NCBI GenBank assembly: GCA_036676765.1
Contig: JAKFCH010000148.1
Coordinates: 11,141-75,140, forward strand
Direction: 5' to 3'
DNA from: Deltaproteobacteria bacterium
GTDB taxonomy: Bacteria; Myxococcota_A; UBA796; SXON01
DNA length: 64,000 nucleotides
In this document: positions 26,730-51,518 of the stretch, piece by piece
How positions within the stretch are numbered: position 1 is the first letter of the stretch
Layout of the letters: every line of letters starts with the position of its first letter
Translations under genes and position numbers: made by a program
The notes under the pieces: generated by a model
Database searches by the model: none
Told to the model about the DNA's origin: nothing
The model's input: the letters and a program-made list of their open reading frames with translations, nothing else

Positions 26730-26839
26730 GCGTCGATTCTACATGAAACCTCGATGCACGCAAGGCGCCTTCGCGCGATTCCGACTGCTTGCAGCCCGGC
26801 GAAAGAACGGGCATACAGGCGGTCCACAGGAAGACTACC

Positions 26840-29671
26840 ATGCGCCTCACGCTGCTGCTCACGCTCCTGCTCGTCGCCTGTACGGGCGAAGGCGAAAAGC
26901 CGACCGACTCCGGAGACGACGCGGGCACCGATGCCGATGCCGACGGCTTCACGGCGGTCGATGGCGATTGCGACGACAATGACTCCACCCGGTCGCCCGG
27001 GGCGGTCGAGGAGTGCGACGGAATAGACAACAACTGCGACAATGCAGTCGACGAGGGTGTCACCAACACGTACTTCGCGGACGCGGACGGCGACGGCTAC
27101 GGCGACCCCGCGGTGACCGAGCCCGCGTGCACGGCCTCCACCGGGTACGTCGCGACCGGTGACGACTGCGACGACACCGACGCCTCGAGCTTCCCCGGCG
27201 CCTTCGAGACCTGCGACGACGCCGACAACGACTGCGACGGCACGATCGACGAGGACGTGATCCCGACGTGGTACGCCGACGCCGACGCCGACGGCTACGG
27301 TGACGCCGCCGTCGCGCAGGACATCTGCCTCGCCCCCGGCGGCTACGTCGCCGATGCCACCGACTGCGACGACGCCGACGCCGACGTCAACCCGGGCGCC
27401 GCCGAGGCCGACTGCACCGATCCGAACGACTACAATTGCGACGGTTCCGTCGGATATGCCGATGTGGACGGCGACGGTCGCGCGGCCTGCGACGACTGCG
27501 ACGACGCTGTCGCCACGACCTACGAAGGCGCGTCGGAGGCCTGCAACGGCGTCGATGACGACTGCGACTCGGTGGTGGACGAAGACGTGACCACGACCTT
27601 CTACGCAGACGCCGACGCCGACGGCGCGGGCAACCTCGCCTTGCCCGTCGAGGCGTGCGACCTTCCTTCCGGCTACGCCGCGAGCGCCGACGACTGCGAC
27701 GACGCGCTCGCCGATGTGAACCCGAGCGCCCCCGAGATCTGCAACGGCGGCCTCGACGACGACTGCGACGGCTTCGCGGACGACGACGACGCAGGCGTCG
27801 ACCTCTCCACCGGCGAGACTTGGTACAGAGACGGCGACGGCGACGCCCACGGAGACCCCGCCGCGGCGCTCGACGCCTGCCTCGCTCCCGCCGATTACGT
27901 GGCGGATTCTTCGGACTGTGACGACGGGGCCGCCGCCGTGAACCCGGCCGCGACCGAAACCTGCAACAGCGGGGTGGACGACGACTGCGACGGTTCGGCG
28001 GATGACGCCGACACCACGGTGGCCGACACCACGACGTGGTTCTATGACCTCGACAGCGACGGTTTCGGCGACCCCGCCAGGACGGTCGACACCTGCGAGG
28101 CACCTGTCAGCTACGTCGGGACCGCGACCGACTGCGACGACGCGACCTTCGACGTCAATCCCGCCGCGACCGAGACCTGCAACAGCGGCGTGGACGACGA
28201 CTGTGACGGCCTCGCCGACGATGACGACGCCAGCACCGACCTGACCACGGGGGAGACCTGGTACTACGACAACGACGGTGACTCCTCGGGCGATGCCGCG
28301 GTGACCATGGACGCCTGCGTGGCCCCGACCTCCTACGTCGGGTCCGGTGACGACTGCAATGACGATGACGCGGCGATTGGTCCGACCGGCGTCGAAGTCT
28401 GCAACAGCGGCGTGGACGACGATTGTGACGGCCTCTCCGACGACGACGACCCCACCGTGGACCTCGCGACCGCCACCAGCTGGTTCGCCGACGGCGACCG
28501 CGACGGCGATGGCGATGCCGCGACCACCACCCGCACCTGCGTGTCGCCCGCTGGCCACGTCACGACGTCGTCGGACTGCAACGACGCCGACGCCGGTGTG
28601 TACACGGGCGCCACCGAGATCTGCAACGAGGGCGTCGACGACGACTGCGACGGCTTCGCCGACGACGACGACACATCCGTGGACACTTCGACCGGGTCGA
28701 CCTGGTACGCCGACGCCGACACGGACGGCTACGGCGACGCCGGCACCTCAGCGCAGACCTGCGAGGCCGGCTCGGGCTACCTCGCGGACGCCACCGACTG
28801 CGACGATCGCGACGCCGAGGCCCACCCGGGTGCCTCCGAAACCTGGTACGACGGGCAGGATCAGGACTGCGACGGCGCGTCCGACTACGACCAGGATGGC
28901 GACGGTGACGACGCGATTGGCTACGGCGGGATCGACGAGGACGACACGAACCCGGACTGCGCGGAGGACTGCTCCGACGGCTCGACCCAGGCGCGCGCCG
29001 GGGCTTCCTGCGAGGACCTGCTCGTGACCTTCCCGGACAGCGGGGACGGCACCTACTGGATCGATCCCGACTTCGACGGGGACACGTCCGACGCGTTCGA
29101 GGTCGAGTGCGACATGGAGAACGGCGGCTGGTCCCGCTGCTTCGCCTTGACCAACACCACCGCCGAGGACCTGATCGGAAACACCTGGTTCGACGACTGC
29201 GTCGATTGGACGGGCGATTGGACCGAAGACGAGGTCCGCGTCGTCCTGACCGACACCTCCGGCACGGTCCTCTACGATCACAACGGGGTGCGGCCGACGA
29301 CCTGGAGCCGTACGCAGCTCACGTCGACGGTCACCCCCTTCAGTCAATACCACGAGGACAACCACCTTTCGCTCGTCACGCTGGACAACGGCGACAAGCT
29401 GATGATCACCGGGAACAACAGCTACAACAGCGGCTGCGGCGGGTCGTTCGGCAACGGCTACGGCATCGTCGTGTACCCCAGCTCCCCGGACTACTACTCC
29501 AACCCGAAGATGCTGGTCATGTCGCACCAGCAGACCCTGACCTACACGAGCGTGCGGCTGTTCGCGGGCTGGACGGCGTCCAACGAGATCAGCGGGACGG
29601 GGGGCTCGTCGTTCAACACTTGCAGCTCTACACCGAGCCAGCTCGGAACGTTCGAGTTCTACCTGCGGTAG
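26840..29671 (+). CDS. secreted lipoprotein with about 10 MopE-type Cys/Asp repeats and a fibrinogen-C / collagen C-propeptide-like C-terminal domain
   Basis: ORF 26789..29671. The likely start is MRLTLLLTLLLVAC (lipobox) at 26840. It has 10 repeat units of the same pattern as the 8430..11627 gene, plus a 237-aa C-terminal domain. Confidence 0.85.
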   Translation: MRLTLLLTLLLVACTGEGEKPTDSGDDAGTDADADGFTAVDGDCDDNDSTRSPGAVEECDGIDNNCDNAVDEGVTNTYFADADGDGYGDPAVTEPACTASTGYVATGDDCDDTDASSFPGAFETCDDADNDCDGTIDEDVIPTWYADADADGYGDAAVAQDICLAPGGYVADATDCDDADADVNPGAAEADCTDPNDYNCDGSVGYADVDGDGRAACDDCDDAVATTYEGASEACNGVDDDCDSVVDEDVTTTFYADADADGAGNLALPVEACDLPSGYAASADDCDDALADVNPSAPEICNGGLDDDCDGFADDDDAGVDLSTGETWYRDGDGDAHGDPAAALDACLAPADYVADSSDCDDGAAAVNPAATETCNSGVDDDCDGSADDADTTVADTTTWFYDLDSDGFGDPARTVDTCEAPVSYVGTATDCDDATFDVNPAATETCNSGVDDDCDGLADDDDASTDLTTGETWYYDNDGDSSGDAAVTMDACVAPTSYVGSGDDCNDDDAAIGPTGVEVCNSGVDDDCDGLSDDDDPTVDLATATSWFADGDRDGDGDAATTTRTCVSPAGHVTTSSDCNDADAGVYTGATEICNEGVDDDCDGFADDDDTSVDTSTGSTWYADADTDGYGDAGTSAQTCEAGSGYLADATDCDDRDAEAHPGASETWYDGQDQDCDGASDYDQDGDGDDAIGYGGIDEDDTNPDCAEDCSDGSTQARAGASCEDLLVTFPDSGDGTYWIDPDFDGDTSDAFEVECDMENGGWSRCFALTNTTAEDLIGNTWFDDCVDWTGDWTEDEVRVVLTDTSGTVLYDHNGVRPTTWSRTQLTSTVTPFSQYHEDNHLSLVTLDNGDKLMITGNNSYNSGCGGSFGNGYGIVVYPSSPDYYSNPKMLVMSHQQTLTYTSVRLFAGWTASNEISGTGGSSFNTCSSTPSQLGTFEFYLR

Positions 29672-31410: not shown

Positions 31411-31842
31411 TCATGCCTCGATCGCGCGCAGGTAGCCTCGCGCCGCATAGCCGAGAAGTGCGCGATCCCGAGTGACGAGAATGGCACTCTCGTGACGCGC
31501 GGTCGCTGCGATGATTCGATCCGAGGGATCACCGTGAAGGTCGCCCGGGAGACGAGTGCTGGCGACGGCGATCTCGGGGGAGAGCGGAAGGATGCGGAGG
31601 CCCGCGCGCCTGGTGGACTCGGCCACCCACTCGAGACAGTCCATCTGGAGCTGCATGCGCCCCTTGGATTCCAGCATGGCCACCTCCCAGACCGATATGG
31701 CGGAGATGGCGAGCGCCGACTCGGCGGAAGCACGGCGAATGCCGTCGAGAGCGCCCTCGAGGAGGCGCTCCGGACCACCGTTCACCAGCCAGATCCAGAC
31801 GTGCGTGTCGAGCACATGGAGGTCTACTGATCCGCTTCCCAC
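31411..31842 (-). CDS. vapC: PIN-domain toxin (VapC family)
   Basis: VLDTHVWIW...ISVWEVAML...DPSDRIIAATARHESAILVTRD carries the conserved PIN acidic residues. The GTG start overlaps the antitoxin 3' end by 19 nt. Confidence 0.8.
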   Translation of the reverse strand: MGSGSVDLHVLDTHVWIWLVNGGPERLLEGALDGIRRASAESALAISAISVWEVAMLESKGRMQLQMDCLEWVAESTRRAGLRILPLSPEIAVASTRLPGDLHGDPSDRIIAATARHESAILVTRDRALLGYAARGYLRAIEA

Positions 31843-32821: not shown

Positions 32822-32930
32822 GAAGCTCGACGACTCCGTACTCGGCTGCAGCCACGACGACGTGCTCGCCACGTCGACTACCGCATCAAGGATGCGGTGG
32901 TGCCGTTTCACCACCCGACCCCGACGGCCC
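32822..32930 (+). pseudogene. miniature internal-deletion relic of a large serine recombinase gene
   Basis: 32822-32870 matches about 40660-40708 (GAAGCTCGACGACTCCGT.CTCGGCT.CA.CCACGACGACGTGCTCGC). 32869-32930 matches about 41091-41152 (CACGT.GACTACCGCATCAAGGATGCGG.GGTGCCGTTTCACCA). The two blocks are joined directly at a short CGCC microhomology. Confidence 0.55.
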
Positions 32931-32943
32931 GCCTCGGGGTCAT

Positions 32944-34943: not shown

Positions 34944-35828
34944 ATGGAGCGTATGAGCCACCTGCTCCACCCCTTGCAGCGATACCAACTTCAGATCGAG
35001 CACGCGCTGGGTGAAGCGGTGCTGCAGCTTGGTGAGGAATCGCCTCTCCGCGCGGCGTGTGAGTACTCGCTGCTCGTCGGCGGCAAGCGTCTTCGTCCTG
35101 CCGTTGTCCTGATGGTGGCGGATGCGCTGGGCGCCCGCCACAGCGTCATCAAGGCCGCGCTGGCAACCGAGTTCCTCCACACCGCGTCCCTCATTGCCGA
35201 CGATCTGCCCAGCATGGACAACGCGGAGTTGCGGCGTGACGCACTCACGCTGCACCGCAAGTACGGTGAGGATGTGGCACTGCTGGCCACCTACGCGCTC
35301 ATCGCGGCTGGTTACGGGTACATCGCCGAGAATGCGCTGGAGTTGAAGCAACTTGAGCCCGCGGGCGAATGGGATCACGTGTGCGTGCTGGCCATCGCGA
35401 ACGCCACGCGCAATACCGGCATCCACGGAACGACCGGTGGACAGTACCTGGACCTGCATCCGCCGGCGGTGCTGGAGGACGCGCTCGCCAGGCTGATTCA
35501 CCTGAAGACCACCACGCTGTTCGAGGTCTCGTTCGTGCTCGGTTGGCTCTTTGGCGGTGGGAACCGCGACCAGCTCCCCTCGGTGGCCGAGCTGTCGCGC
35601 AACTTCGGACTTGCCTACCAGATTGCCGACGACCTGGACGACCTCGAAGAGGACAGGCAATTGGGGCGCGGCGTGAACTACGCGCTGCAGTTTGGTGAGA
35701 CGCAGGCCCGCGTTCAGCTGAGTGCCGCGTTGGACGCGTGCGAGCAGCTGGCCCATACCCTTGGCCTGCGCGGCGCCGCTCTGTTCGAGATCACCTCCGC
35801 CCTGCGTCAGACGGCCGCGCTGGCGTGA
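34944..35828 (+). CDS. short-chain (E)-polyprenyl diphosphate synthase (FPP/GGPP synthase class)
   Basis: Real part of ORF 34791..35828. Motifs: GGKRLRP, first Asp-rich motif LIADDLPSMDNAELRRD, second Asp-rich motif AYQIADDLDD. The start is ATG 34944 or 34953. Confidence 0.85.
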   Translation: MERMSHLLHPLQRYQLQIEHALGEAVLQLGEESPLRAACEYSLLVGGKRLRPAVVLMVADALGARHSVIKAALATEFLHTASLIADDLPSMDNAELRRDALTLHRKYGEDVALLATYALIAAGYGYIAENALELKQLEPAGEWDHVCVLAIANATRNTGIHGTTGGQYLDLHPPAVLEDALARLIHLKTTTLFEVSFVLGWLFGGGNRDQLPSVAELSRNFGLAYQIADDLDDLEEDRQLGRGVNYALQFGETQARVQLSAALDACEQLAHTLGLRGAALFEITSALRQTAALA

Positions 35829-36916
35829 GCGCACCGGCGACGCTCGGACGCAGTGCGGTGGGCCGCGCGCTTTGCAGCTTCCGGTTGCTGGCCGGGCAAC
35901 GCGACGCCGGCGGCGTGCTGCTCCTGATCGCCGTGTGCGGCGTCGCGGCGCTGAACGCCGCGCTGATGTGGCTGGAAGACCGCCTCGTGCCAGGGCTGAC
36001 GACGCAGCCGCTGGACCGTGTCATCTTCATCCTGGGCCACCATCGCAGCGGAACCACCAACCTCCACAAGGCGCTGCGGCCGCACCCCAGCCTGCGGTGC
36101 GGCACCCTGTATGACGCGTTGTTCCCGTCGCTCTACCTGAAGCGACTGTTCCGGACGCGGCCGGCGCGCTGGGTCTCTCACTCGCTCAATCGCAATGCCG
36201 CCGCCCGTTATGACAGCGCGAACCACCCGGTGGGTCTGGACGAGGAGCTCGAGGAGCACTTGTGGCTCCTGCACCGCCTGCGCTCCGAGGCGTTCCTGCT
36301 GATGTTTCCGTCGCTGTTGCTGGCGGAGCCCGGCCTGATGCCTGACGCCGTGGACATCACCGACGACGACCTGCGCTTCGTGGCACGCTGCCTGCGGCGC
36401 GTCCTTCACGACGAGAAGGATCCCACGACGACCTACGTTGCGCGTCCGCTGCTCTTCACCATGCACGTGGAGGCGCTGCTGCGGCAGTTTCCCGCGGCGC
36501 GGGTGGTGCTCTGCGTGCGTGAGCCCGCGGCGGCCATCTGTTCACAGGGAGCCATGAGTCAGGCGCAGCTGCGGTGCGCCGTCGATGACCCGCGGCTGGT
36601 GGCCTGGGCGGAGGGCTTCTACCAGGCGGCGTCCACGCGCCAGTATGCGGCGATGCTTCACCTGATCGAGGACCCCGCGCACACCGGCCGCGTCGTGATG
36701 GTCCGCTTCGACGACCTCCAGCGCGACACACCCGGCGTGCTGCGCCGGCTGCTCGCCGCGCTGCACCTTCCCGAGATGGAGCTGCCCGCCGTGCGCGCCG
36801 AGCGCCACGCCGGCGCGGCGCCGCTGGAGCTCATCGCGCGCGAGCGCATCGAAGCAGACCTGGGTGAAACCTACCGGCGGCTCCTGGAGCGCATGCCTGG
36901 GACCATCCATGGTTAG
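35825..36916 (+). CDS. membrane-anchored sulfotransferase-family protein
   Basis: Real part of ORF 35738..36916. The GTG start at 35825 overlaps the upstream stop as GTGA. It has a TM segment (GVLLLIAVCGVAALNAALMWL), a PAPS 5'-phosphosulfate loop ILGHHRSGTTNLHKAL and a 3'-phosphate-type motif VVLCVREPAAAICS. Confidence 0.7.
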   Translation: MSAPATLGRSAVGRALCSFRLLAGQRDAGGVLLLIAVCGVAALNAALMWLEDRLVPGLTTQPLDRVIFILGHHRSGTTNLHKALRPHPSLRCGTLYDALFPSLYLKRLFRTRPARWVSHSLNRNAAARYDSANHPVGLDEELEEHLWLLHRLRSEAFLLMFPSLLLAEPGLMPDAVDITDDDLRFVARCLRRVLHDEKDPTTTYVARPLLFTMHVEALLRQFPAARVVLCVREPAAAICSQGAMSQAQLRCAVDDPRLVAWAEGFYQAASTRQYAAMLHLIEDPAHTGRVVMVRFDDLQRDTPGVLRRLLAALHLPEMELPAVRAERHAGAAPLELIARERIEADLGETYRRLLERMPGTIHG

Positions 36917-38330
36917 CGGACGCGCGACGATGGGCGACTGGCTTCGCCTGTTCCGCCCGCGCAACCTTCCCAACTTTCTCGTCGTCGTCTTGGGCGCGCT
37001 GGCCGTCAGTGACAGCGCGCCGCCGATCGAGGCGCTGGCGTTCGAGTTCCTCTGGTTTGGTCTGTGCCTCTACGGCGGAATCTACATCCTCAACGAGGTG
37101 CTCGAGGCGGATGTCGATCGGCTGCATCCCGTCAAGCGCAGCCGCCCAGTGCCCTCCGGCAGGATTCGGGCGTGGCAGGCGCTGGTGCTGGTCGGCGTCC
37201 TCTGGACCATCGCCTTCGCAGCAGCCGAGCCCGCGCAGCGCGCGCTGTATCTGGGGTTCATCGCGGTCAACGTGGTGTACACGCTATTCGTGAAGCGGCA
37301 TGGGTTTCGGAACCTCATTGCCGTGACCAGCGCGCTGCGCGTCTCGCTGGGATTCGTGGTGGCGGGGAAGGGGGCCTTGTATGAGCCGGGGCTCATGGTG
37401 CTCGCCACGGTCTACATGGCGTCGGTGCAGCAGGTGAAGTTCGGTGTCGAGGGGACCCGCGGCAGCCGCCACACCGGGGCCAAGCTGCTCGTCTTCGCGG
37501 CGCTGATGGTACCGGTCTCCATCTGGTGCATGCCGCGCTATCCCGTCATGGTGGCGTGGACCTGGCTGGCAATGGTCGTCTGGGTGTTCCTCCCGTGGCA
37601 GTTTCCGCCGGCCGCCCGCTGGCTCATCGGCGCCGACGTGCCCACGCCGGACACCACGCGGGCGGGGCTTCCCGCCATGATCGTCTTCGACATCGACGGG
37701 ACGCTCTGCGACAGCATGCCCGCCATCCTGGACGCCGTGAACGACGCGGCGCCGGCCATGGGATTTTCGCGCATCACGCAGGAGCGGTACCGCGAGATGC
37801 GGACCATGACCGTCCGGCAGATCCAGAAGGACCTGGGGTTGAGCGGTTGGCAGCTGGCCAGACTCGGCCGCCATACCCGCCGCTTTCTCTACGAGCGGAA
37901 GGACAGCCTCGCGCCGGTCGCCGGCGTGGCTGCGCAGCTGCGGGTGTTGCGCCAGAGCGGCTATCGCCTCGCCATCGTCTCGTCGAACCAGCAGAAGAAC
38001 GTGCGGGCATTCGTGCGTGCGCATGACATCGACTTTTTCGACGAGATCAACACGCACTGCGGGTTGGGCACCGGCCTGTGGCGTAAGCGCGAGCAACTGC
38101 GTGATCTGATGGACAACTGGCAGCACCAGGTGGGCCGGTTTGTCTATGTCTGCGACGAGATCCGCGACGTCGAAGCGGCGCGCGCGGTCCGGATGCCAGT
38201 CATTGCCGTCAGTTGGGGAGCGAACACGGCCGCGGTCCTTGCCGCCGCCGGCCCGACGACGCTCATCGACTCGCCGGCGCAGCTGGTCGACGCTGTGCGG
38301 AGTGCGGTCTCGATGGGTGAATCTGCATGA
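36909..38330 (+). CDS. UbiA-superfamily prenyltransferase fused to a HAD-superfamily phosphatase
   Basis: ORF 36864..38330. ATG 36909 overlaps the upstream stop by 8 nt. The N-terminal about 260 aa is polytopic with LNEVLEADVDRLHPVKRSRPVPSGRI. The C-terminal HAD has motifs IVFDIDGTLCDS, LAIVSSNQ and VYVCDEIRDVEAA. Confidence 0.8.
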   Translation: MVSGRATMGDWLRLFRPRNLPNFLVVVLGALAVSDSAPPIEALAFEFLWFGLCLYGGIYILNEVLEADVDRLHPVKRSRPVPSGRIRAWQALVLVGVLWTIAFAAAEPAQRALYLGFIAVNVVYTLFVKRHGFRNLIAVTSALRVSLGFVVAGKGALYEPGLMVLATVYMASVQQVKFGVEGTRGSRHTGAKLLVFAALMVPVSIWCMPRYPVMVAWTWLAMVVWVFLPWQFPPAARWLIGADVPTPDTTRAGLPAMIVFDIDGTLCDSMPAILDAVNDAAPAMGFSRITQERYREMRTMTVRQIQKDLGLSGWQLARLGRHTRRFLYERKDSLAPVAGVAAQLRVLRQSGYRLAIVSSNQQKNVRAFVRAHDIDFFDEINTHCGLGTGLWRKREQLRDLMDNWQHQVGRFVYVCDEIRDVEAARAVRMPVIAVSWGANTAAVLAAAGPTTLIDSPAQLVDAVRSAVSMGESA

Positions 38331-39268
38331 CGGATGCACTGGAGCTGGAAGCCGCGGCCTGCCTCCTCTGCGGCGCCAGCGATGACGAGACCGTGGCGAT
38401 CAGTCCGGTACAACAGCACACCACGCGGGACGTGTTCCGCTTTGTCCGGTGCCGCGCCTGTGCGCTTGTGCGGCTCCACCCGCGCGTCCGCGCCGAGCGC
38501 GTAGGCGTCTACTATGACGCCACCTATCTGCCGCACCGCGGCGCGGCGGCCTGGGGCCGTTACGCGCCTATCGTCGAGCGGGCGTTGGGGCGGACGGATC
38601 GCGCCCGGGTCAAACGTGTGCTCGCCACCAAGCGACTCACGTCAGTCTCGCGGGTGCTCGACGTCGGCTGCGGACGTCCGACCTTTCTTCGCGCGTTGCG
38701 CGACGCCACCGGCGCCCACGCCGTGGGCATCGATTTCGTTGACGAGGCATGGCGCGGCGACCCTGCACGCTGGAGCGGGCTCGAGCTTCACGAGGGAACA
38801 TTGGAAAACGCGCCGCTCACACCCGGGTTCGACGCGATGACGCTGTGGCACGCGCTGGAGCACGATTACCAGCCGCTGGCGACGCTGCGCCGGTTGCGCG
38901 CGCTGGCGGCTCCGGACGCCGTGCTGGTGATCGAAGTCCCGAACTACGACTCGCTCTGGAGGATATGGCACGGCGCGCAATGGGCAGGTTTTCATACGCC
39001 GCGCCATACGGTGGCGTTCACCCCGGCGACGCTGCGCCACCTGGTGGAGAAGGCGGGCTGGCGTGTCGAGCAGCAGCTCCGCTACGGCACGCTCGACCCG
39101 TACATCTCGTGGTGGCTTGGCCGTCAGGAGCTCAACGGGCTCGGCGTGCGCGGCGACCTCTCCGGCCGGTTCTTCAGCTTCGTGCTCGGCAAGGCGCTGT
39201 CGCTTCCGCTGACCGTGTTTCAGCGGTGGGTGAGCATGGGCGCGCAGACGCTGATCGCGCGCGCATGA
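38327..39268 (+). CDS. class I SAM-dependent methyltransferase with an N-terminal CxxC...CxxC ribbon
   Basis: ATGA overlap with the upstream gene. CLLCGASDD...FVRCRACALV, SAM motif I VLDVGCGRPTF, post-I and motif II FDAMTLWHALEH. Confidence 0.8.
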   Translation: MTDALELEAAACLLCGASDDETVAISPVQQHTTRDVFRFVRCRACALVRLHPRVRAERVGVYYDATYLPHRGAAAWGRYAPIVERALGRTDRARVKRVLATKRLTSVSRVLDVGCGRPTFLRALRDATGAHAVGIDFVDEAWRGDPARWSGLELHEGTLENAPLTPGFDAMTLWHALEHDYQPLATLRRLRALAAPDAVLVIEVPNYDSLWRIWHGAQWAGFHTPRHTVAFTPATLRHLVEKAGWRVEQQLRYGTLDPYISWWLGRQELNGLGVRGDLSGRFFSFVLGKALSLPLTVFQRWVSMGAQTLIARA

Positions 39269-40416
39269 AAACACACTGTGACGTACTCATCGTCGGCGCG
39301 GGTCCGGCAGGCACCACTTGCGCGGAGACGCTGGCGCGCAGTGGTGCGTCGGTGGTCGTGCTCGACAGGAAGCGGGCGGGCTGGCACAAGCCGTGTGGCG
39401 GCGGCATCCCGGAGAAGACGTTTCGAAAATTCGATCTGCCGCTGTCGCTCGGGTTCGCCACGCCGTGCGTCCGGGTCGTCGATCGCGCGGGTCACGAAGT
39501 GCGCACGACGGTCCGCTATCGTGACGTCCACCGCAATGTCTTCGACGAGCATCTGGCGGACAGAGCCCGGAGCGAGGGTGCCGAGGTGCTGTTCGACACG
39601 CCCGTCGTCGGCGTCGAGCGGACGACGTCGGGCTTCCGCGCGCAAACGTCCGCCGGCACCTGCGATGCGAAGTACCTCGTGGCGGCGGACGGCTGCATGT
39701 CCACGATCCGGAAACGGCTCTTCCCCGAGCAGTTGCGCAAGGAGATGCTCGCGGTGGCCGTCGAGTATTGGTATCGCGTTCCGCACGGTACCAACTCGCT
39801 CGACTTCTTCGTCGAGCCCGCCATCCTCGACACCGGCTACGCCTACGTGTTTCCCAAGGACCCGGAGACGCTGGTCGTCGGCATTGCCGGTGTGGGGGTG
39901 AGCAAGCCGCGGGCGGTGCTGGACCGGCTGCTCGCGCTGCCGCGCTACCAGGCGCTCATTGGCAGCGCGCCTGTCCATCAAGTGCACGGCGCAGGGATTC
40001 CGTATCGGCATCTCTCGCGCATTCGTGACGGCCGTCTGCTGCTGGTGGGCGACGCGGCCGGGTTGAACACCCCGATCATCTTCGCGGGGATTCCCGTGGC
40101 GATGTCGTCAGGACGGCTGGCGGGCGAGCTGCTCGCTGAGGCGCTGGCCTCTGGCACCGAGACGCCGCTCGACCGCTACACGCCCGACGAAATCGGTCGG
40201 ATCAGCTCCGGCTTCACGGGGTGTCACGCCTACTACGACCACCTGATCGCCCAGCGTCGTCCCCCGGCGTTTCACCAGCTGGCCCGGCACTTCCTGTCCC
40301 GGCCGCACAAGCTGCCGCAAGCCTACGTGCTCTGGCGATCGCTCAACCGGCTCGTCGAGGGTCTGAACCTCGAGCGAATTGCGGCCACTCACCGCCGTGA
40401 GCAAGACCAGGGTTAG
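39265..40416 (+). CDS. geranylgeranyl reductase family FAD-dependent oxidoreductase
   Basis: Real part of ORF 38749..40416, with ATGA overlap with the upstream gene. DVLIVGAGPAGTTCAETLARSG (GxGxxG), KPCGGGIP, LVAADGCMS, LLLVGDAAGLNTP. Confidence 0.85.
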   Translation: MKTHCDVLIVGAGPAGTTCAETLARSGASVVVLDRKRAGWHKPCGGGIPEKTFRKFDLPLSLGFATPCVRVVDRAGHEVRTTVRYRDVHRNVFDEHLADRARSEGAEVLFDTPVVGVERTTSGFRAQTSAGTCDAKYLVAADGCMSTIRKRLFPEQLRKEMLAVAVEYWYRVPHGTNSLDFFVEPAILDTGYAYVFPKDPETLVVGIAGVGVSKPRAVLDRLLALPRYQALIGSAPVHQVHGAGIPYRHLSRIRDGRLLLVGDAAGLNTPIIFAGIPVAMSSGRLAGELLAEALASGTETPLDRYTPDEIGRISSGFTGCHAYYDHLIAQRRPPAFHQLARHFLSRPHKLPQAYVLWRSLNRLVEGLNLERIAATHRREQDQG

Positions 40417-40479
40417 ACATTGGGATCATCCTCACCCTCTCTCCCCGCCTCGCCCGGCCGTCAGGCGCGGCGGGTGGCG

Positions 40480-41159
40480 GGTGGCGGGGTCCCGGTCCGA
40501 GCGCGACGTGCTCACCCCGTGGCTCCGGTGCGGCTCGTGTGGCGGCCGCGTCCAGATCACGGCTGGAGGTCGCGCCAGCGGGGGCATCTTCCACTACTAC
40601 GTCTGCGCCTCCCGTCAGGAGAACAAGGCCCATTGCTCCGGGCTGAACGTCCGGTTGGAGAAGCTCGACGACTCCGTGCTCGGCTACATCCACGACGACG
40701 TGCTCGCGCCCGACAACGTCCGCGACCTCGTGTCCCGCTGGGCGGCCGCCCTGTCCGACCAGCCCGACGAGGTCCAGGTCGAGCGCGCCCGCCTCTCCTC
40801 CGACATTGACCAGCTGGACCAGCGTATCCGCAAGGTCGGGCTCCAGGTCGTCGATGGCGTGCTCGCCACGGAGGACACCAAGGCCCTGAACGCGCGGCTC
40901 ATCGACCGCCGCGACGCGGCGAAGCTGCGCCTCGCTTCGCTCCCCCAACGCCAGCCGACGCCCCCGGCCCATCGACGCCGACACGTTCCGCGGCGAGATC
41001 CTGACCGCGTGGGGCAACCGCCCTCTCGACGATCGCCGGGCCGCCCTCGACCGGATCATCGAGAGGATCACCCTGTCAGAGGGCGGCGCCCACGTGGACT
41101 ACCGCATCAAGGATGCGGAGGTGCCGTTTCACCAGCCTGACCCCTCAGGCCCCCCATAA
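40480..41159 (+). pseudogene. large serine recombinase gene relic (zinc-ribbon + coiled-coil C-terminal part only, frameshifted)
   Basis: ORF 40379..41140 reads LRCGSCGGRVQITAGGRASGGIFHYYVCASRQENKAHCSGLNVRLEKLDDSVLGYI...DQLDQRIRKV, a recombinase zinc beta-ribbon and coiled coil. The resolvase catalytic domain is absent. After about 40960 the sensible reading (PIDADTFRGEILTAWGNRPLDDRRAALDRIIERITLSEGGAHVDYRIKDAEVPFHQ) continues in another frame to TAA at 41157-59. Confidence 0.65.
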
Positions 41160-43058: not shown

Positions 43059-46000
43059 CTATCCGCCGTTCTCCGCCCGGATCCGCCCCAACTCCTCGGC
43101 GACCACCCCGGCGGTCCAGGCCAGCTGGGCCTCGGAGTGCAGGGAGGAGAGGAAGAAGCGCAGGCGCGAGGCGTTGTCCGCCACCGCCGGGTACAGGATT
43201 GGCTGGACGTTGACGCCGCGCTTCATCAGCGCGTCCGACAAGAGAAGCGCGTGGAAGCTGTTCCCCACGATGACCGGGCACACGCCGCTCTCGCCGGCGG
43301 AGGGTCCGGTGTCCAGGTTGTGCTTCTGACACTCGGCATAGAAGAAGCGGGCGTTGGCCTGCAGCTTCTTCACGTTCTCCGGCTCGCGCTCCATGAGCTC
43401 GAGCGAGGCGATGGCGGCCATCGTGTTCGCGGGGGAGAGGCCCGCCGAGTAGATGAAGCCGGGGGCGGTGTACTTCAGGAGCTGCACGAGCACGCGGCTG
43501 CCAGCAATATAGCCACCGCAGCTCGACAGGGACTTGGAGAGGGTCCCCATCCAGATGTCGATGTCGGTGCCGGGCACGCCGAAGTGCTCGGAGACGCCGT
43601 AGCCGCGCTCCCCGACGACGCCGAAGGAGTGGGCCTCGTCGACCATGAGGAAACACTTGTGGCGCTTCTTCAACGCCACGTAGGCGGGGAGATCGCAGAT
43701 GTCCCCATCCATGGAGTACACACCCTCGACCACGATCAGCGCCTTCTCGAAGTTGGGCCGGAGCTGCTCCAACAAGCGGGCCAACGCCGCGGTGTCCCCG
43801 TGGGGGAAAGGCCGCCGCGTGGCGCCCGAGAGCTTCATGCCCTGGAACACCGAGTCGTGGATGAGCTCGTCGTGGAGGATGAGGTCCTTCGGCCCGAACA
43901 GGTGACCGACCGTCGTGACGTTGGTGGCATGGCCCGCGGTGAACACCACGCTCTCCTCGACGCCGAGGGCCGCGGCGATGCGCTGCTCCAACTCGAGGTG
44001 GATGGGGCGCTCGCCCGACGCCACGCGGCTCGCGCTCACGCTGGTGCCGTACTTGCGCACGGCCTCGGTGACCCGCTGCTCGACGTAGGGGTGCCCCGAG
44101 AACCCGAGGTAGTTGTACCCGGAGAAGTGGACGCGCTCCTTGCCGGCGATCTCCACCACGTCCCGCGCGGTGCCCTCGAGCACCTTGAAGTACGGGTTGT
44201 CGATGCCGAGCATCAACGCCGCCTGGAGGCGCTGGTCGAGGTCGATCCACGCGGGGAACCGCGCGAAGTCGGTGAACTCGGGTGACACGGCCAACTCACC
44301 GGGGAGCGCGCGCAGCTCGCCCTCGACGCCCTCGCCGACGGCCACGACCTCGCCGTTCGCGCGACGCAACACGACGGTGCCCGTGAACCGGTCGCCGGTG
44401 TTGGCCTCGAACGTGACGGCCACGTCGAGCACCTCGTCCGCCGTCACGTGACGTTGGGTCCACGCGCGCACCTTGACCGGGAAGCCGGCGCGCTGCCGCT
44501 TCTCGAACGCCCAGAGGCCGCAGAGCTGGAGCGCGGAGTCGATGGCGAGCGGCGAGAAGGTCCAACCGTCCTGGCCCCACGCCACGGACGAGCCGACGCG
44601 AACCTTGCCGGTGACGTGCTGATCGCCGAGGACCCCCACCGACACGATGCCCTGGAGCAGCGGCCCGTGGAACGTGTGGTTGCTGTAGAAGTCGGCCAGC
44701 GCGGTCTTGGCGGCGGCGCCGCCGGTCGGCAGGTCGGGCACCATCGACGGTTCGATTTCGAGGCCCTTCCCAACCTCCGCGGCCACGGCGCTACCGACGC
44801 GGCCCTCCCAAGCCAGCTTGGATCCGACCAGCACCCGGAACCGCTCGCCGTCGAGGCGGAGCCGCGCGACCAGCGGCTTCTCGACCACGACACCGTCGAA
44901 CAGGGTGAGGTCGTGTACCGTCGGGCCGGCGCCCACCGCCGCGCCGAGCCGGATGGCCCATTCGAGCACCATCGCCATCGGCACGGTCGGGCGGCCCATG
45001 AGCGCGTGGTCGCGCAGCCAGGGCATCTCGGGAGAGAGGGCCTCGGTCACTTCGAGCGAGCGCCGCACCGCCGGGAGATCGAGGCCGAGCACGACCTCGC
45101 CGGGGATGCCGAGCGCCTGAACGAAGGCGCGGGCGCCCTGCGCGGTGTCGACGAACACGACGCCGTCCTCGCGCATGGCGACGCGCATCGGGAGCGGCAC
45201 GGTGCCGACCATCGTGGAGTCGGCCCACGGGCCCCACACCTGCACCTGCGCGTGGATGTCGCGCGCCGCGAGCCCGGGGAGCAGCCCGACGAGCCCGTCG
45301 TTGGCGGCGGCGTACTCGGTCTGGAACGCGTTGCCGAAGAACGCCGCGTAGCTGCCGATCGCGCTCACCCACCGCACACCGGGGCAGGCGTCCACGAGGC
45401 GGAGGAGGCCGTTGACCTTGATGTCCCAGGCGGCGGTCCCGTCGACCTTGCCGACGGGGCCGTCCGCGAGCACACCCGCGGCGTGCACGATGCCGTCGAT
45501 GCCGTCGAGGGTGGGCACGATGCCCCGGAGGTCGGCGCGCACGTAGCGGGCGGACGCGCCGAGGTTCGCCAGGGCGTCCCCCGGGTCCTGCCGCGAGCCG
45601 AGGAGCACGACCTCCGCGCCCGCGTCGATCAGCGCGCGCGCGAGCACCTGGCCGAGCCAGCCGGTGCCGCCGCTCACGAGGATGCGTTGCCCGGCGACGT
45701 TCATCGGCGCGGGGGCGTCGTGCGGGGCGAGCCCGACGACGAAGCGCGCACCGCCCTCGTAGTGCACCACCGCGTCGCGTTCGGCCGCGGCGAGCTCCGC
45801 CACGGCGTCGGCTTCGGTGCCGTACACGAGCACGACCTTGTGGTCGGCCCACTCGCGGGAGAGGGCGCGGACGAAGCCCAGGACGCCATGTTCGTGGGGC
45901 GCCGCAAGGAGGCCCGCCATCGGGATCACCACCGCGACATCGCCCGGGGTGAGCGCGCGGAGCGCGGCGAGGCTCGGCTTCACGAGCACGCGCCCGCTCG

Positions 46001-49000
46001 TCGCGCGGGCGTGGCCGGAGAGCGGCGCGGCGCGGAGCACGGGCCGGTAGAGCGCGAGCTCCCGGTCGGGCAACGTGAGCGCGACGCTGCTCGCCTCGGC
46101 GCCCTCGACGTGGCGCACCAGGTCCGCCACCGTCGGCGAGGTCGCGAACAGCGACCGCGGGATGCCCGTGAAGCCCGGTACGGCCTCACCGAGCTTCGTC
46201 GAGAGCTCCGCGAGCATGAGCGAGTCGAAGCCGAGATCGTCGAGCAGGCGCTGCTCCACGCGCAGGGCATCGAGCGGGAACGCCGACACCTTCGACACCA
46301 CGCGCAGCACGCGGGCCTCGATGTCCTCCCCGTCGACGCCGCCCCCCTCGAAGGAGACGGGCTCCGAGCGCTCGGGGGGGGCGTTGCGGGGGGGCTCGCC
46401 CCCCTGCCCCAAGATCCCGGAGGTTCCGTACGCGAAGTCGGCGTTCGAGCGGCCGGTGTCCTGGACCGCCCAGTACTGCTGGGTGGTGAACGGCGTCGGC
46501 GGTAGCGACGCGAGGCCCTCGCCGAAGCCGGTGAGGTCGACGCGGTGGCCCGCGGCGGCGAGGCGGGCGAGCAGACGGAGGAGCCCGAGCCCGTCCGTGT
46601 CGCTCTCGCTCGCGACGGAGAGGATCTCGGCGTCCGGCACGACCCCGCGCGCGAACGCGGTGAGGGTGGCGCCGCTGCCGAGCTGCACGAAGATGCGCGC
46701 GCCGGCGTCCCAGCACTGCTGCAGGCCGCGCACGTACTCCACCGGGGAGGTGGCGTGGCGCGCGAAGATGGCCCGCACCTCCGCCGCGGAGGTCGGGGGC
46801 GTGGCGTGGATGCACGACGCCATCGGGGCGGTCGGCGCGGTGAACGCAACCTCGGCGAGCCCGCGTTCGACATCGTCCTGGACGGACTCGAGCATCGGCG
46901 AGTGGAACGCGTGCGAGACCGGGATGCGACGCGCCTTGAGCCCGGCGGCGGCCAGCGCGACCAGCGCGCGCTCCACCTCGGCCGTGGGCCCGGAGATCAC
47001 GTTCTGGCGTGGGTGGTTGCGGTTGGCGATCACCACCGTGGGCGGCAGGTGCGGGGCGACGGCGTCGGCCTCGGCCATCACCGCGGCCATGGCGCCGTGG
47101 TCCCCGGGCATGGCCGACATGGCCTTGCCGCGGCTCGCGACGAAGCGCAGGGCCTCCCGCGCGGGGGCCCCGCCGGCAAGCGCCGCGGCGGTGAACTCGC
47201 CGAGCGAGTGGCCGAGCACGATCGCGGGGGTGATGCCGTAGCGGGCGAGCACGGCGGCCACGGCGACGCCGATCGCGAACATCGCCGGCTGGGCGATCTG
47301 CGTGTCGGTGAGGGCCTCCTCGGTCGCGTCGGGCGCCCAGATGTACTCAGTGAGCGGACGCGCGGTGAGGTCGAGGACGTCGCGCTCGCAGGCGGCCATC
47401 GCCTCGGCGAACGGCGGGAGGTGCAGCCAGTCGCGCAGCATGCCGACCTTCTGCATGCCCTGCCCGGGCGCGAGGAAGGCCACCGGCACGGGCTTACCCG
47501 CATCCCCGAGGACGATGTCGCGGTGGAGGGCGCCGCGGGTCGAGGGGTCCTTCGAGAGCGCGTCCGCGGCCGTCTGGAGGCGCTCGGCGAGCTCGGTCAC
47601 GGTGCGGGCAACGATCGCGACGCGCACGGCGCGGCGCTTGCGGCCGAGGTTCAGCGTGTGGGCGATCGCGGCGAGATCGCCGGCGTCGTCGAGGGTGGCG
47701 GCCAGCTCGGCGCAGTGCCGGGCGAGCAGCGCGCCGTCGTCCGCGCTGGTCACGACGAGCACGCCGGGGAGGGCGTGCAGGGGCTCGGGGATCCGCGCGC
47801 CCACGAAGATCCGCCCCGGGCGCCCGCTTCCGCGCGCCGGCGCCTCTTCGAGCACGACATGGCCGTTGGTGCCGCCGAACCCGAAGGACGACACGGTGGC
47901 GCGGCGCGGGGTCACGCTCCGCCACGGCGCGGCCACGGTCGGGACGGTGAACGTGCCGTCGTCGAGCTGGTGGAGGGGGTGGGGCGCCGACCAGTTCGCG
48001 AGCGGGGGGATGGTCTTGTGGTGGATCGCGAGCACGGCCTTGATCAGGCCGGCGACCCCCGCGGCCGACATCGTGTGGCCGATGTTCCCCTTCGCCGAGC
48101 CGAGGGGCACCGGGGCACGGCCGGACGCGCCGTCGCGACGGTCACCGATCATGGTGCGCAGCGCGCCGAGCTCGGTCTTGTCCCCGACGGTGGTGCCGGT
48201 GCCGTGCGCCTCGACGTACCCGATCTGATCGGCGGTCACGCCGGCGTCCGCCCACGCCTGCGCGATGACGGCCTCCTGGCCCTCGGCGCGGGGGCTCATC
48301 GGGCCGTCGCCCCGGCCGTCGTTGTTGCAGCCGCTGCCCCGGATGACCGCGTACACGCGATCGTGGTCGCGGACGGCGTCCTCCAGGCGCTTGAGCATCA
48401 CCATGCCCACGCCCTCGCCCTGCACGAACCCGTCGGCGTCGGCGTCGAAGGGGCGGCACACGCCCTTGGCGCTGATGGCGCCGATGCGCGAGAACGCGAT
48501 GAGGTTCTCGGGCGAGAGGTTGAGGTAGACGCCGCCGGCCACCGCGGCGTCGATCTGGCCGTCGCGGAGGTAGGTCACGGCGTCGTGGATCGCCACGAGC
48601 GCGGAGGCGCACGCCGCGTCGACGGTGAAGGCGGGGCCGCCCAGATCGAGCTCCTGCGCCACCACCGCCGCCGACATGTTGCCGAGCGCGCCCGCCGCGG
48701 TGAACGCGCGGGTCTGGACCACGCGGTTGACGGCCGAGGCCATCAACCGGGCCTCCTCGGCGCTCGCGGCACCCTGGCCGAGATCGCCCGAGGCCATCAT
48801 CGCCGCGGCCACGCGCGTGCTCATCAGCGAGCGGTACTCGGTGCACGAGAGCCCGAGGAACGTGCCGACGCGACGGCGGTCGAGGCCGCGGCCGAGCGTG
48901 CCCGGCCCGCTCGCGCGGTCGATGGCGGGCGCGTAGCCGGCGTCCTGGAGGGCGTGCCACGCGGCCTCGAGCGTGAGGCGCTGCTGCGGGTCCATCACCT

Positions 49001-51382: not shown

Positions 51383-51518
51383 TGGGACCCTCCGAGGGCC
51401 GCACCTCTAGCACAGGCCGTCGGATTGGGCCAAGTGCCCGTTCCGAGAAAGACAATCAACTCACGGGTCAGTTTGGGCTGCTCAGGGAGGTTGACCGACG
51501 GGTCGATTTGGATCCAAC

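Follow-up and report, generated by a model that had tools for sequence, protein, structure and literature searches.

A very rare operon of five genes whose probable product is a sulfated and methylated short isoprenoid lipid with a phosphate-linked sugar

In the ORF15 protein of Citrobacter youngae O1, a HAD phosphoribose phosphatase and a UbiA-family polyprenyl-phosphate 5-phosphoribosyltransferase are joined, and farnesyl phosphate can serve as its substrate in vitro (PMC11127046). The mycobacterial decaprenyl-phospho-arabinose pathway follows a two-step logic, in which phosphoribosyl transfer by Rv3806c (DPPRS) is followed by dephosphorylation, and its phosphatase, the separate protein Rv3807c, has been described as unrelated to HAD-family phosphatases (PMC11127046). 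Thirteen residues of Rv3806c have been named, with Lys28 binding the acceptor phosphate and the 5'-phosphate of PRPP, and in classical UbiA enzymes a second Mg2+, bound in a pocket of negative charge, is known to be required (PMC10994848). The archaeal ether-lipid core joins a GGPP synthase, a DGGGP synthase and a geranylgeranyl reductase. In Mycobacterium tuberculosis, the S881 pathway (MenA, MenJ, Cyp128, and Stf3) combines a UbiA-family enzyme, a GGR-family reductase, and an Stf-type sulfotransferase; it requires a P450 and a naphthoquinone head group, and its product, made by Stf3, is a sulfated, partly saturated isoprenoid lipid (S881, sulfated menaquinone).

The locus described here lies in a 64,000-nucleotide stretch of a Deltaproteobacteria bacterium contig (JAKFCH010000148.1), the whole of which is called the window, and shares protein families with each of these systems. 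Five + strand genes (g1 to g5) are present at the coordinates given in an earlier note, and the same five were called by an independent gene caller on an identical public contig. All four junctions overlap as described there (GTGA at 35825, ATGGTTAG at 36909, ATGA at 38327, and ATGA at 39265), HMM searches support all five of its family calls (PF00348, PF13469, PF01040 with PF13419, PF13489, and TIGR02032), and the catalytic motifs that it had judged intact are found in the five translations and are kept in orthologues. Its remark that no characterised cluster of this composition was known also holds, as none was found in the literature. The gene order is found again in independent lineages at 61–73% protein identity, which places the operon beyond chance, and the five genes are a real, very rare operon.

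The first gene, g1 (34944–35828, + strand, 294 aa), encodes a GGPP-synthase-like short-chain trans-isoprenyl diphosphate synthase (PF00348, 6e-37), which among solved structures matches type II GGPP synthases (1e-34) ahead of FPP synthases (1e-30) and long-chain synthases (1e-15). Its FARM (DDLP[SC]MD) and SARM (IADDxxD) are conserved in orthologues, with DDLPSMD and DDLDD in the translation itself, and the residue five positions ahead of the FARM is small (Ala/Ser), as in CrtE. The product of g2 (35825–36916, + strand, 363 aa) is a membrane-anchored PAPS sulfotransferase (PF13469, 6e-21) with an N-terminal 19-residue hydropathy of 2.38, a GHHRSGTT motif, and a 5'-PSB loop GHHRSGTTNLHK and 3'-PB motif REPxxxIxS that are invariant in six orthologues. 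Its AF2 model (pLDDT 83.7) is structurally nearest to mycobacterial Stf9 and Stf1 (TM-scores 0.64 and 0.60, respectively); Stf3, the S881 enzyme, is a different member of the Stf family. The class I SAM methyltransferase encoded by g4 (38327–39268, + strand, 313 aa; PF13489, 7e-23) carries a VLDVGCG motif and an N-terminal Cys4 zinc-ribbon-like segment, and g5 (39265–40416, + strand, 383 aa) encodes a geranylgeranyl-reductase-family flavoprotein with GAGPAG and PCGGG motifs (TIGR02032, 171.9 bits against a cut-off of 158.8), which among solved structures is most closely related to the archaeal digeranylgeranylglycerophospholipid reductase 3oz2.

Synthase, sulfotransferase, and fusion (g3, described below) follow each other in this order in four high-GC lineages, namely this one and three other metagenomic lineages with 61–73% protein identity, and the 8-nt sulfotransferase/fusion overlap is kept in all four. 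Two further lineages are known from fragments, one of them with a different gene order; in L018, the fusion and sulfotransferase genes are adjacent in a different order. The distant, 36%-GC organism of L017 has a synthase-fusion pair (39–46% identity), preceded 16 nt upstream by a MurJ-family flippase gene (2e-92), and this pair is the most widely conserved unit of the cassette. The reductase is accessory and outside the conserved core, being present in two of the four loci with enough flanking sequence and having an orthologue (73% identity) only in L004. Methyltransferase orthologues (68–72% identity) occur in L004 and L005, the methyltransferase of L002 is non-orthologous (28% identity), and the g4 family is widespread outside the cassette. 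The UbiA-HAD fusion forms only two clusters among 1.84 billion representative proteins, and only six members of the g2 sulfotransferase family were found in 5.8 billion proteins.

The fusion gene g3 (36909–38330, + strand; PF01040, 2e-15; PF13419, 7e-24) encodes an N-terminal UbiA-fold domain of the phosphoribosyltransferase (DPPRS) type (36909–37640, + strand) and a C-terminal HAD-IA phosphatase domain (37674–38330, + strand). In all six fusion members, the top NCBIfam matches are PRK08238 (4e-23), which is the ORF15 type, and three DPPRS models (3e-21 to 1e-14), with the EboC and heme O synthase models ranking below them; all of these matches lie far under the curated family cut-offs (e.g., 60 bits against 351). 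Against solved structures, the UbiA domain matches DPPRS (8j8j) at 55 bits, whereas no classical UbiA enzyme exceeds 26 (ApUbiA 26, AfUbiA 24). It contains the motifs N62-x3-D/E66-x3-D70 (NEVLEADVD) and HPVKRxRP, and a second Asp-rich motif is absent from the domain; the corresponding site has K177-x3-E181 with a basic loop, resembling the KxxxE of DPPRS (KRYAE) and of the ORF15-type protein P0016 (KRFSE) and not DxxxD. Judged by these motifs and rankings, the domain is not the classical prenyl-diphosphate transferase that the earlier note took it for, and is closest to Rv3806c and ORF15. The secondary suggestion of that note, a prenyl-phosphate-sugar, is the better one, because the second Asp-rich motif is missing and phosphoribosyltransferase-type UbiA models score best.

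The diphosphate and Mg2+ binders of Rv3806c are conserved in g3 (R22 as R16, N73 as N62, D77 as D/E66, K87 as K76, R90 as R79, Y138 as Y124, K143 as K129, and K191 as K177), with K208 lying near, but not exactly aligned with, K192. Two phosphoribose contacts are retained as well, Tyr70 as Y59 and, by conservative replacement, Gln135 as the invariant N121. Lys28 is replaced by an invariant Asn (N22), and Tyr157 is not kept. The alignment to DPPRS, with an identity of about 25–30%, spans the first helical bundle only; for the second half, the KxxxE and TGA(K) motifs served as anchors of an alignment by eye. The AF2 model of g3 has 8 TM helices in the UbiA domain, rather than the 9 of ORF15, so that the HAD domain at the C-terminus would be cytoplasmic. 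The four catalytic motifs of this domain (FDIDGT, SSN, K393, and DExxD) are all invariant, also in a 39%-identical relative. The HAD fold resembles phosphoglycolate-phosphatase-type HADs and AlnB, and its closest stand-alone relatives include HAD-squalene/phytoene-synthase fusions, which hints at prenyl phosphate and not sugar phosphate substrates.

For the combination of UbiA and HAD domains, ORF15 is a characterised precedent (PMC11127046), albeit with the opposite domain order. In both proteins, a single polypeptide holds a DPPRS-like UbiA domain together with a HAD phosphatase, but in g3 the UbiA domain is N-terminal, and its HAD is of subfamily IA with a C1 cap, whereas that of ORF15 is IB-like and has no significant similarity to it; the pairing thus arose twice. 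The partners also differ, a flippase and a GT-C glycosyltransferase for ORF15 and a prenyl synthase, sulfotransferase, methyltransferase, and reductase for g3. Compared with the mycobacterial pathway, the two-step logic appears similar, but the phosphatase is a fused domain, the DprE1/DprE2 epimerase is missing from the cassette, and the lipid is probably C15–C20, all-trans, and supplied by a dedicated synthase instead of being decaprenyl phosphate.

Judged from its sequence, the operon probably builds a short isoprenoid lipid whose phosphate-linked sugar subsequently undergoes sulfation and methylation. As a specific scheme, put forward tentatively, a C15–C20 prenyl phosphate and PRPP would give a prenyl-phospho-ribose, followed by the action of the fused phosphatase, O-sulfation, O-methylation, and saturation, so that a tailored short-chain prenyl-phospho-pentose lipid would be assembled at the cytoplasmic side of the membrane. 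The g1 enzyme, a prenyl diphosphate synthase by its family assignment, would supply an all-trans product with a presumed length of C15–C20, most likely GGPP. In the g3 UbiA domain, as in Rv3806c and ORF15, one Mg2+ on the single Asp-rich motif together with the basic loop would bind the PRPP diphosphate, and 5-phosphoribose would be transferred to the phosphate of a prenyl monophosphate, as the motif pattern and best-match ranking suggest. The fused HAD phosphatase, cytoplasmic and beside the UbiA active site, would take off one phosphate: the 5'-phosphate of the ribose, as ORF15, Rv3807c, and AlnB do, or else the terminal one of the prenyl diphosphate, which would yield the monophosphate acceptor. 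The Stf1/Stf9-like sulfotransferase may then O-sulfate and the methyltransferase O-methylate the product, in either order, and the reductase, in loci having one, would turn the chain into a saturated, phytanyl-like tail. The end product may be an anionic membrane glycolipid or a lipid-linked modified-pentose donor. An isoprenoid-lipid operon with sulfation and methylation as tailoring steps had been proposed earlier and is accepted as a reading, with saturation reduced to an accessory step. The Asn at the Lys28 position, the loss of Tyr157, and the UbiA scores far under the cut-offs speak against phosphoribosyl transfer. Nor does any gene of the cassette obviously supply prenyl monophosphate, and the high-GC loci lack a flippase and a GT-C glycosyltransferase.

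It is possible, though rather doubtful, that g3 is a classical transferase with the GGPP from g1 as its prenyl donor and, as its acceptor, a small polar compound that carries a phosphate (e.g., glycerol phosphate, phosphoglycerate, phosphoglycolate, or a sugar phosphate), after which the HAD domain would remove the phosphate, the freed hydroxyl would be sulfated, and another hydroxyl or a carboxyl methylated to give a sulfated, methylated phytanyl/geranylgeranyl ether lipid. This is close to the main reading of the earlier note. Prenyltransferase clusters usually couple a prenyl diphosphate synthase directly to a UbiA gene, and here this pair is the unit with the widest conservation; no extra diphosphate-to-monophosphate step is required, and phosphoglycolate-phosphatase-type HADs act on small phosphorylated substrates. 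The loss of Lys28 and Tyr157 of DPPRS, the position of DGGGP synthase 6m31 as the next-best UbiA match after DPPRS in a full-length profile search (1.8e-7), and weak matches of g3 to generic and DGGGPS-like NCBIfam models also point this way. However, the g3 domain lacks the second Asp-rich motif that DGGGP synthase has, its sole acidic residue in the helix 6-7 loop (E181) sits inside a basic loop, and all six members rank phosphoribosyltransferase-type models higher. The three archaeal ether-lipid families are all represented, but GGGP synthase, G1P dehydrogenase, and CarS are missing from the cassette, and the reductase is dispensable to it.

It is less probable that the same phosphoribosyl chemistry serves a lipid-linked sugar donor, in which the carrier-bound, modified pentose would be flipped across the membrane and a GT-C enzyme from another locus would attach it to a surface glycan (a 'three-component system'). 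Such is the established role of ORF15 and DPPRS (PMC11127046), and the MurJ-family gene beside the L017 pair would fit it, but that MurJ may be a housekeeping lipid II flippase, and no flippase or GT-C glycosyltransferase gene was found in the four high-GC loci within the available flanks. That the cassette has a trans-prenyl synthase of its own and a reductase for the chain fits a special end-product lipid better than the general cis-polyprenyl carrier.

A prenylated aromatic pathway, of the kind that leads to quinones, tocopherols, or sulfomenaquinone, with a MenA/UbiA/HPT-like UbiA, a ring methylase, a reductase like MenJ or ChlP, and a sulfotransferase like Stf3 leading to a sulfated prenylquinol, is very unlikely. 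The enzyme families have one-to-one counterparts in M. tuberculosis (MenA, MenG, MenJ, and Stf3), the g2 sulfotransferase is nearest in fold to Stf1/Stf9 and S881 is a sulfated menaquinone, and relatives of the methyltransferase are named UbiG/UbiE-like in some source databases, although these names are automatic. Aromatic prenyltransferase models are nevertheless the worst for the g3 UbiA domain, which is not MenA-like (ubiA_proteo in five of six members, best E 5e-7; MqnP and HPT in one of six each), the second Asp-rich motif is again missing, and the match to the MenJ model reaches 60.7 bits, where the cut-off is 700. The cassette has neither an aromatic head-group gene nor a hydroxylase, the fused phosphatase would have no role, and the S881 genes are not clustered in this way and include no HAD domain.

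No other 5.5-kb stretch of the window is as low in GC as the operon (0.678 against 0.716). Its GC3 is 0.848, where the median of the background is 0.916 (p=0.0045); the 11.5–13 kb stretch of the window is nearly as GC-poor (0.683). The dip reported in the earlier note is statistically real, but the contrast with the window is about 4 GC points and not 10, having been overstated by comparison with the highest-GC genes; the excess of T-ending codons stands (10.3% against 4.9%, p=0.0025). The DUF1016 fragment named on one side gave no Pfam match at E<=1, whereas the serine-recombinase relic on the other was recovered as a frameshifted remnant of a large serine recombinase gene (40379–41154, + strand; PF13408 at 4e-10 for 40379–41140), in which only the zinc-ribbon and coiled-coil part is left and a resolvase domain is absent; it abuts the 3' end of the operon. 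An internally deleted second remnant of the same gene lies in direct orientation 8 kb upstream (32822–32933, + strand; 94% identity to 40660–40707 and 83% to 41090–41154). Two remnants of one serine-recombinase gene thus bracket the operon and support a mobile origin; the horizontal acquisition proposed earlier is plausible. That the operon is decaying cargo of a dead mobile element, its pathway not working any more, is hardly credible in spite of the degraded recombinase remnants and other gene fragments adjoining it, as the five frames are intact, the overlaps are tight, and all catalytic motifs are kept, also in the orthologues of other lineages at 61–73% identity.

The operon would represent a pathway that has so far been undescribed, with a product that we infer from sequence.

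The operon occupies positions 34944-40416 of the plus strand, which is filled by the five co-directional open reading frames that the earlier note had described, and independent gene calling on an identical 12.4-kb public contig recovered all five, with identical starts. All junctions overlap as claimed (GTGA at 35825, ATGGTTAG at 36909, ATGA at 38327, and ATGA at 39265), and profile searches upheld each of the five family assignments, namely a prenyl synthase (g1; polyprenyl_synt, 6e-37), a PAPS sulfotransferase (g2; Sulfotransfer_3, 6e-21), a UbiA-HAD fusion (g3; UbiA, 2e-15, and HAD_2, 7e-24), a methyltransferase (g4; Methyltransf_23, 7e-23), and a geranylgeranyl reductase (g5; family TIGR02032, 171.9 bits against a curated cut-off of 158.8). 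The catalytic motifs reported for these genes were found in all of them and are also kept in the orthologues. With a GC content of 0.678, the operon is the lowest 5.5-kb stretch of the window (rank 0 of 235), which averages ∼71% GC; its GC3 is 0.848 vs. a background median of 0.916 (Mann-Whitney p=0.0045), and T-ending codons occur at roughly twice the background frequency (p=0.0025). The low-GC dip claimed earlier is therefore significant, but it amounts to ∼4 GC points rather than 65-68% against 75-80%, a contrast that was too large because the window's highest-GC genes had served as the comparison. In other hosts, cassette GC stays within ∼1 point of that of the flanks (0.706/0.717, 0.674/0.661, 0.680/0.689, and 0.357/0.359). 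Neither a riboswitch nor any other Rfam family was detected within or ahead of the operon, and no promoter-like site was found for it. The single terminator-like site is on the opposite strand, and sites of this kind turn up at least as often in shuffled sequence.

The UbiA domain of g3 had been read as a prenyl-diphosphate transferase, and this is the assignment that changes most. When compared with solved structures, the family profile scores 55-56 bits against Rv3806c (8j8j), the mycobacterial decaprenyl-phosphate phosphoribosyltransferase (DPPRS), vs. 24-33 bits against classical UbiA enzymes. For 6/6 members of the fusion family, the NCBIfam ranking is headed by PRK08238 (HAD-UbiA type) and three DPPRS models, followed by EboC, heme O synthase, and aromatic prenyltransferases, although all scores lie far under the curated cut-offs (48.7-60.7 bits for the top-ranked families, against 207-474). 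The first motif, N-x3-D-x3-D with HPxKRxRP, is present in all six fusion proteins (N62, D/E66, D70, K76, and R79). Among the residues that matter in Rv3806c, Asn73, Asp77, Lys87, and Arg90 bind Mg2+/diphosphate, and Lys28 and Tyr157 bind the phosphate of the acceptor and the 5'-phosphate of PRPP (Gao et al., PMC10994848). The diphosphate/Mg2+ residues are kept in g3 (Rv3806c/g3: R22/R16, N73/N62, D77/D-E66, K87/K76, R90/R79, Y138/Y124, and K143/K129), Tyr70 corresponds to Y59, and Gln135 to an invariant N121. The counterparts of Lys28 and Tyr157 are not kept, the former being an invariant Asn22 in the fusion family and the latter Leu143 or Ser141, according to which alignment is used. Classical UbiA enzymes work with a second Mg2+ in a negatively charged pocket; Rv3806c relies instead on one Mg2+ and a basic cluster (PMC10994848). 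In g3, the second Asp-rich motif (DxxxD) is absent between helices 6 and 7, and Asp is missing altogether from the second half of the domain, where E181 is the sole acidic residue. Aligned by eye, the helix 6-7 loop K177-F-G-V-E181-G-T-R-G-S-R-H-T-G-A-K192 (K-x3-E plus a basic loop) parallels KRYAELHLAERTGAAIRK in Rv3806c, with KRYAE...RTGAAIRK there and KRFSE in P0016, a protein of the type of ORF15 from Citrobacter youngae. Since this basic loop stands in place of the second Asp-rich motif, the g3 domain is, judged by that motif, of the phosphoribosyltransferase type, and PRPP-dependent transfer to a prenyl phosphate is predicted; the first rank of the DPPRS-type models and the missing motif both speak against the earlier reading.

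The closest functional parallel to g3 is ORF15 of C. youngae, which combines an N-terminal HAD phosphoribose phosphatase with a UbiA-family polyprenyl-phosphate phosphoribosyltransferase (PPPRS) and accepts farnesyl phosphate in vitro (Kelly et al., PMC11127046). As in ORF15, a HAD phosphatase and a PPPRS-type domain, both intact, are joined in one g3 polypeptide, but the order is opposite, with HAD at the C-terminus, and the HAD domain belongs to another subfamily with no significant similarity to that of P0016 (E=0.083, DxDGT motif only). Because of the reversed order and the unrelated HAD subfamily, the two activities appear to have been joined in two independent events, a point in favour of a shared two-step chemistry. 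The AlphaFold model of g3 (pLDDT 84.5) contains 8 TM helices, not 9; combined with UbiA topology, this would put the C-terminal HAD domain on the cytoplasmic side, next to the active-site loops. A fold search with the full model returned generic HAD matches only and nothing on the UbiA half. All four HAD catalytic motifs are invariant, and the domain is similar to enzymes of the phosphoglycolate-phosphatase type and to AlnB, a phosphatase whose substrate is a ribose-5-phosphate adduct. Its nearest stand-alone relatives include HAD-squalene/phytoene-synthase fusions (P0029 and P0019, the latter at L059 1865-3502), an architecture of which we know no description, and on this account the HAD domain may instead convert prenyl diphosphate into the monophosphate acceptor. 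For the nearest stand-alone HAD proteins (L019, L020, and L059), the genomic surroundings are housekeeping or otherwise uninformative.

The remaining genes suggest what the prenyl substrate and its modifications might be. The best solved relatives of g1 are type II GGPP synthases (1e-34), then FPP synthases, with long-chain synthases far off. Both aspartate-rich motifs are present (FARM DDLP[SC]MD and SARM IADDxxD), with Ala/Ser five positions before the FARM, where a small residue is the criterion for C20 products. The g1 scores fall under the equivalog cut-offs, so the chain length is an estimate, C15-C20 and probably C20. The sulfotransferase g2 scores 76.2 bits for PF13469 (Pfam gathering threshold 27), has an invariant 5'-PSB loop and 3'-PB motif, and begins with a strongly hydrophobic helix. 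Over its full length, the g2 model (pLDDT 83.7) matches Stf9 and Stf1 of mycobacteria (TM-scores 0.64 and 0.60) vs. 0.32-0.38 (query-normalised) for tyrosylprotein sulfotransferases, and Stf3 of the same family makes the sulfated isoprenoid lipid S881 (PMC3141025). The g4 family is widespread (>340 matches, many in Gemmatimonadales). In two of three contexts outside the cassette, a ∼188-aa ORF with no Pfam match overlaps or adjoins the 5' end of the g4 relative (L060 7414-8939 and L061 7435-8939), and in the third, L063, a 127-aa uncharacterised ORF precedes it. The L061 pair, whose g4 relative has 64% identity, is divergently arranged beside a carotenoid cluster (CrtE, CrtB, two CrtI, CrtC, and HMG-CoA reductase); the contexts are thus mixed, one of the three beside a carotenoid cluster and two uninformative. 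Among solved structures, g5 is closest to the archaeal digeranylgeranylglycerophospholipid reductase, and the GxGxxG and PCGGG motifs are present in both orthologues.

The fusion is very rare. Five full-length relatives were found among 5.8 billion proteins, and 1.84 billion representatives at 50% identity contain two fusion clusters only, that of g3 itself and that of P0018 (39% identity). The remaining strong matches to g3 among these representatives cover the HAD half alone, which leaves the UbiA half without any close relative that stands by itself. In a scan of 185,579 species genomes, one bears the fusion, the matches listed for JGI metagenome contigs contain no further fusion locus beyond that one MAG, and a tblastn search of plasmids gave HAD-only matches. 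The sole species-representative genome with the cassette, GCA_964457335.1 (CAYWGD010000003.1; L007/L002), is labelled 'uncultured Enterobacteriaceae bacterium', a label that looks wrong given the 72% GC of the locus. The g2 sulfotransferase family is as small as the fusion family, with six proteins in all.

The order synthase, sulfotransferase, fusion and the 8-nt sulfotransferase/fusion overlap are both retained in the window and at three high-GC loci (L002/L003, L004, and L005/L006). In the fragment locus L018, the fusion comes first and then the sulfotransferase. The distant relative L017 (36% GC) has a MurJ-family flippase gene (152-1696; 2e-92) that ends 16 nt ahead of the synthase-fusion pair, with no sulfotransferase between synthase and fusion and the contig ending directly after the latter. 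In the window, L004, and L005, a g4 orthologue (68-72% identity) lies 3' of the fusion; L002 has a non-orthologous methyltransferase (28% identity) upstream instead. Of the five families, the synthase, sulfotransferase, and fusion do so at four loci, but the reductase is present in the window and L004 only (73% identity). From this gene content, the synthase and fusion form the core of the cassette, in most cases joined by the sulfotransferase; a methyltransferase is commonly present, and the reductase is an accessory gene. In L004 alone, the gene directly upstream of the reductase (1-1791) encodes a membrane protein that contains a PF00884 domain and the threonine motif GNTADS. It was considered as a true sulfatase and rejected on this motif, which resembles the catalytic threonine signature of LtaS/OpgB-type phospho-alcohol transferases.

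The flanks of the operon suggest that it may have a mobile history. The serine-recombinase relic noticed earlier beside the operon is borne out by ORF 40379-41140, which is frameshifted and matches the zinc-ribbon domain of large serine recombinases alone (4e-10), with the resolvase domain absent. A second remnant of the same gene lies in direct orientation at 32822-32933, with an internal 382-nt deletion (94% identical to 40660-40707 and 83% identical to 41090-41154), so that remnants at 32822-32933 and 40379-41154 bracket an 8-kb segment with an FG-GAP gene and the operon. In the window (31411-31842, minus strand) and in the unrelated host of L002/L003 (L002 5953-6348, minus strand) alike, a PIN toxin gene is found a few kb upstream of the cassette. 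The flanking genes are unlike one another at every locus, which, with the recombinase remnants, lends some support to movement of the cassette. The DUF1016 fragment proposed near the operon was not confirmed (no Pfam match at E<=1). A flanking 615-aa beta-helix protein was considered as a member of the unit and rejected, as it is not homologous to the similar-sized flank genes in L003, L004, and L005, which places the flanks outside the unit. On the other strand, 2.6 kb from the operon, lies a 2068-aa type I polyketide synthase with a C-terminal BioF/serine-palmitoyltransferase-like PLP domain (43059-49265, minus strand), preceded by a fatty acyl-AMP ligase (49541-51406, minus strand). This pair resembles a pathway of the sphingoid or amino-lipid type and is not kept beside the cassette at other loci. 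The window also encodes a 960-aa secreted-looking protein (26789-29671, plus strand) with Cys/Asp-rich repeats (CDDxD...NPGAxExCNGxDDDCDG) and a terminal fibrinogen-like GGGWT domain. With 71% GC, Ser/Thr kinases, and a polyketide synthase, the source genome may be Myxococcota-like.

The best explanation for the cassette, one to which we give tentative credence somewhat short of an even chance, is a prenyl-phospho-ribose lipid pathway with sulfation, methylation, and accessory saturation. A 5-phosphoribose would be transferred from PRPP onto a short prenyl phosphate, the fused phosphatase of g3 would process the intermediate, the product would be O-sulfated and O-methylated at the membrane, and its prenyl tail would be saturated where the reductase is present. 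Against this stand the missing Lys28 counterpart, the family scores below threshold, the alignment of the second motif by eye, the absence of a prenyl monophosphate source from the cassette, and the absence of flippase and GT-C partners at the high-GC loci. A classical transfer, with the GGPP suggested by the relatives of g1 as prenyl donor and a small phosphorylated acceptor, is unlikely but the strongest competitor, and it has to accommodate a UbiA domain lacking the second Asp-rich motif. Less likely again, the chemistry may be the same and the product a donor for glycan decoration. The three-component ORF15 system differs here, as the window, L002, L004, and L005 have no flippase or GT-C glycosyltransferase gene, and a MurJ-family gene occurs in L017 only. 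A sulfated prenylquinol pathway would suit the likeness of g2 to the Stf proteins, but it is improbable, with aromatic prenyltransferases ranking below the DPPRS models for g3. That the cassette is dead cargo of a mobile element, for all the recombinase remnants around it, is highly improbable for a set of genes whose motifs are kept across loci. Returning to the prenyl-phospho-ribose pathway, its fullest form is doubtful as a whole, namely that an O-sulfated, O-methylated phytanyl/geranylgeranyl phospho-pentofuranose constitutes a hitherto unknown bacterial lipid class, made via a new branch of 8-TM, C-terminally HAD-fused UbiA phosphoribosyltransferases and spread between distant phyla on mobile elements.

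The earlier note knew of no described cluster of this composition, and a literature search likewise found no description of the gene set. The g3 architecture is new within a recently characterised enzyme type, and the operon partners are also new for that type. UbiA-fold membrane phosphoribosyltransferases are known from the mycobacterial arabinan pathway, itself a drug target, and since 2024 from the ribofuranose decoration of O-antigens, and both of these pathways load a general polyprenyl carrier. The unit is coherent as well as rare and suggestive in its chemistry, with a product predicted from its sequence; at 5.5 kb, self-contained and with intact motifs, it is amenable to a direct test by heterologous expression. 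As a second natural phosphatase-transferase fusion, with the opposite order and one TM helix fewer, g3 also informs how two such active sites are coupled. If the proposed pathway is true, the cassette would extend phosphoribosyl chemistry to a dedicated short-chain isoprenoid that is sulfated and methylated on the lipid, and its product would be either a novel anionic glycolipid or a modified sugar donor of a new kind.
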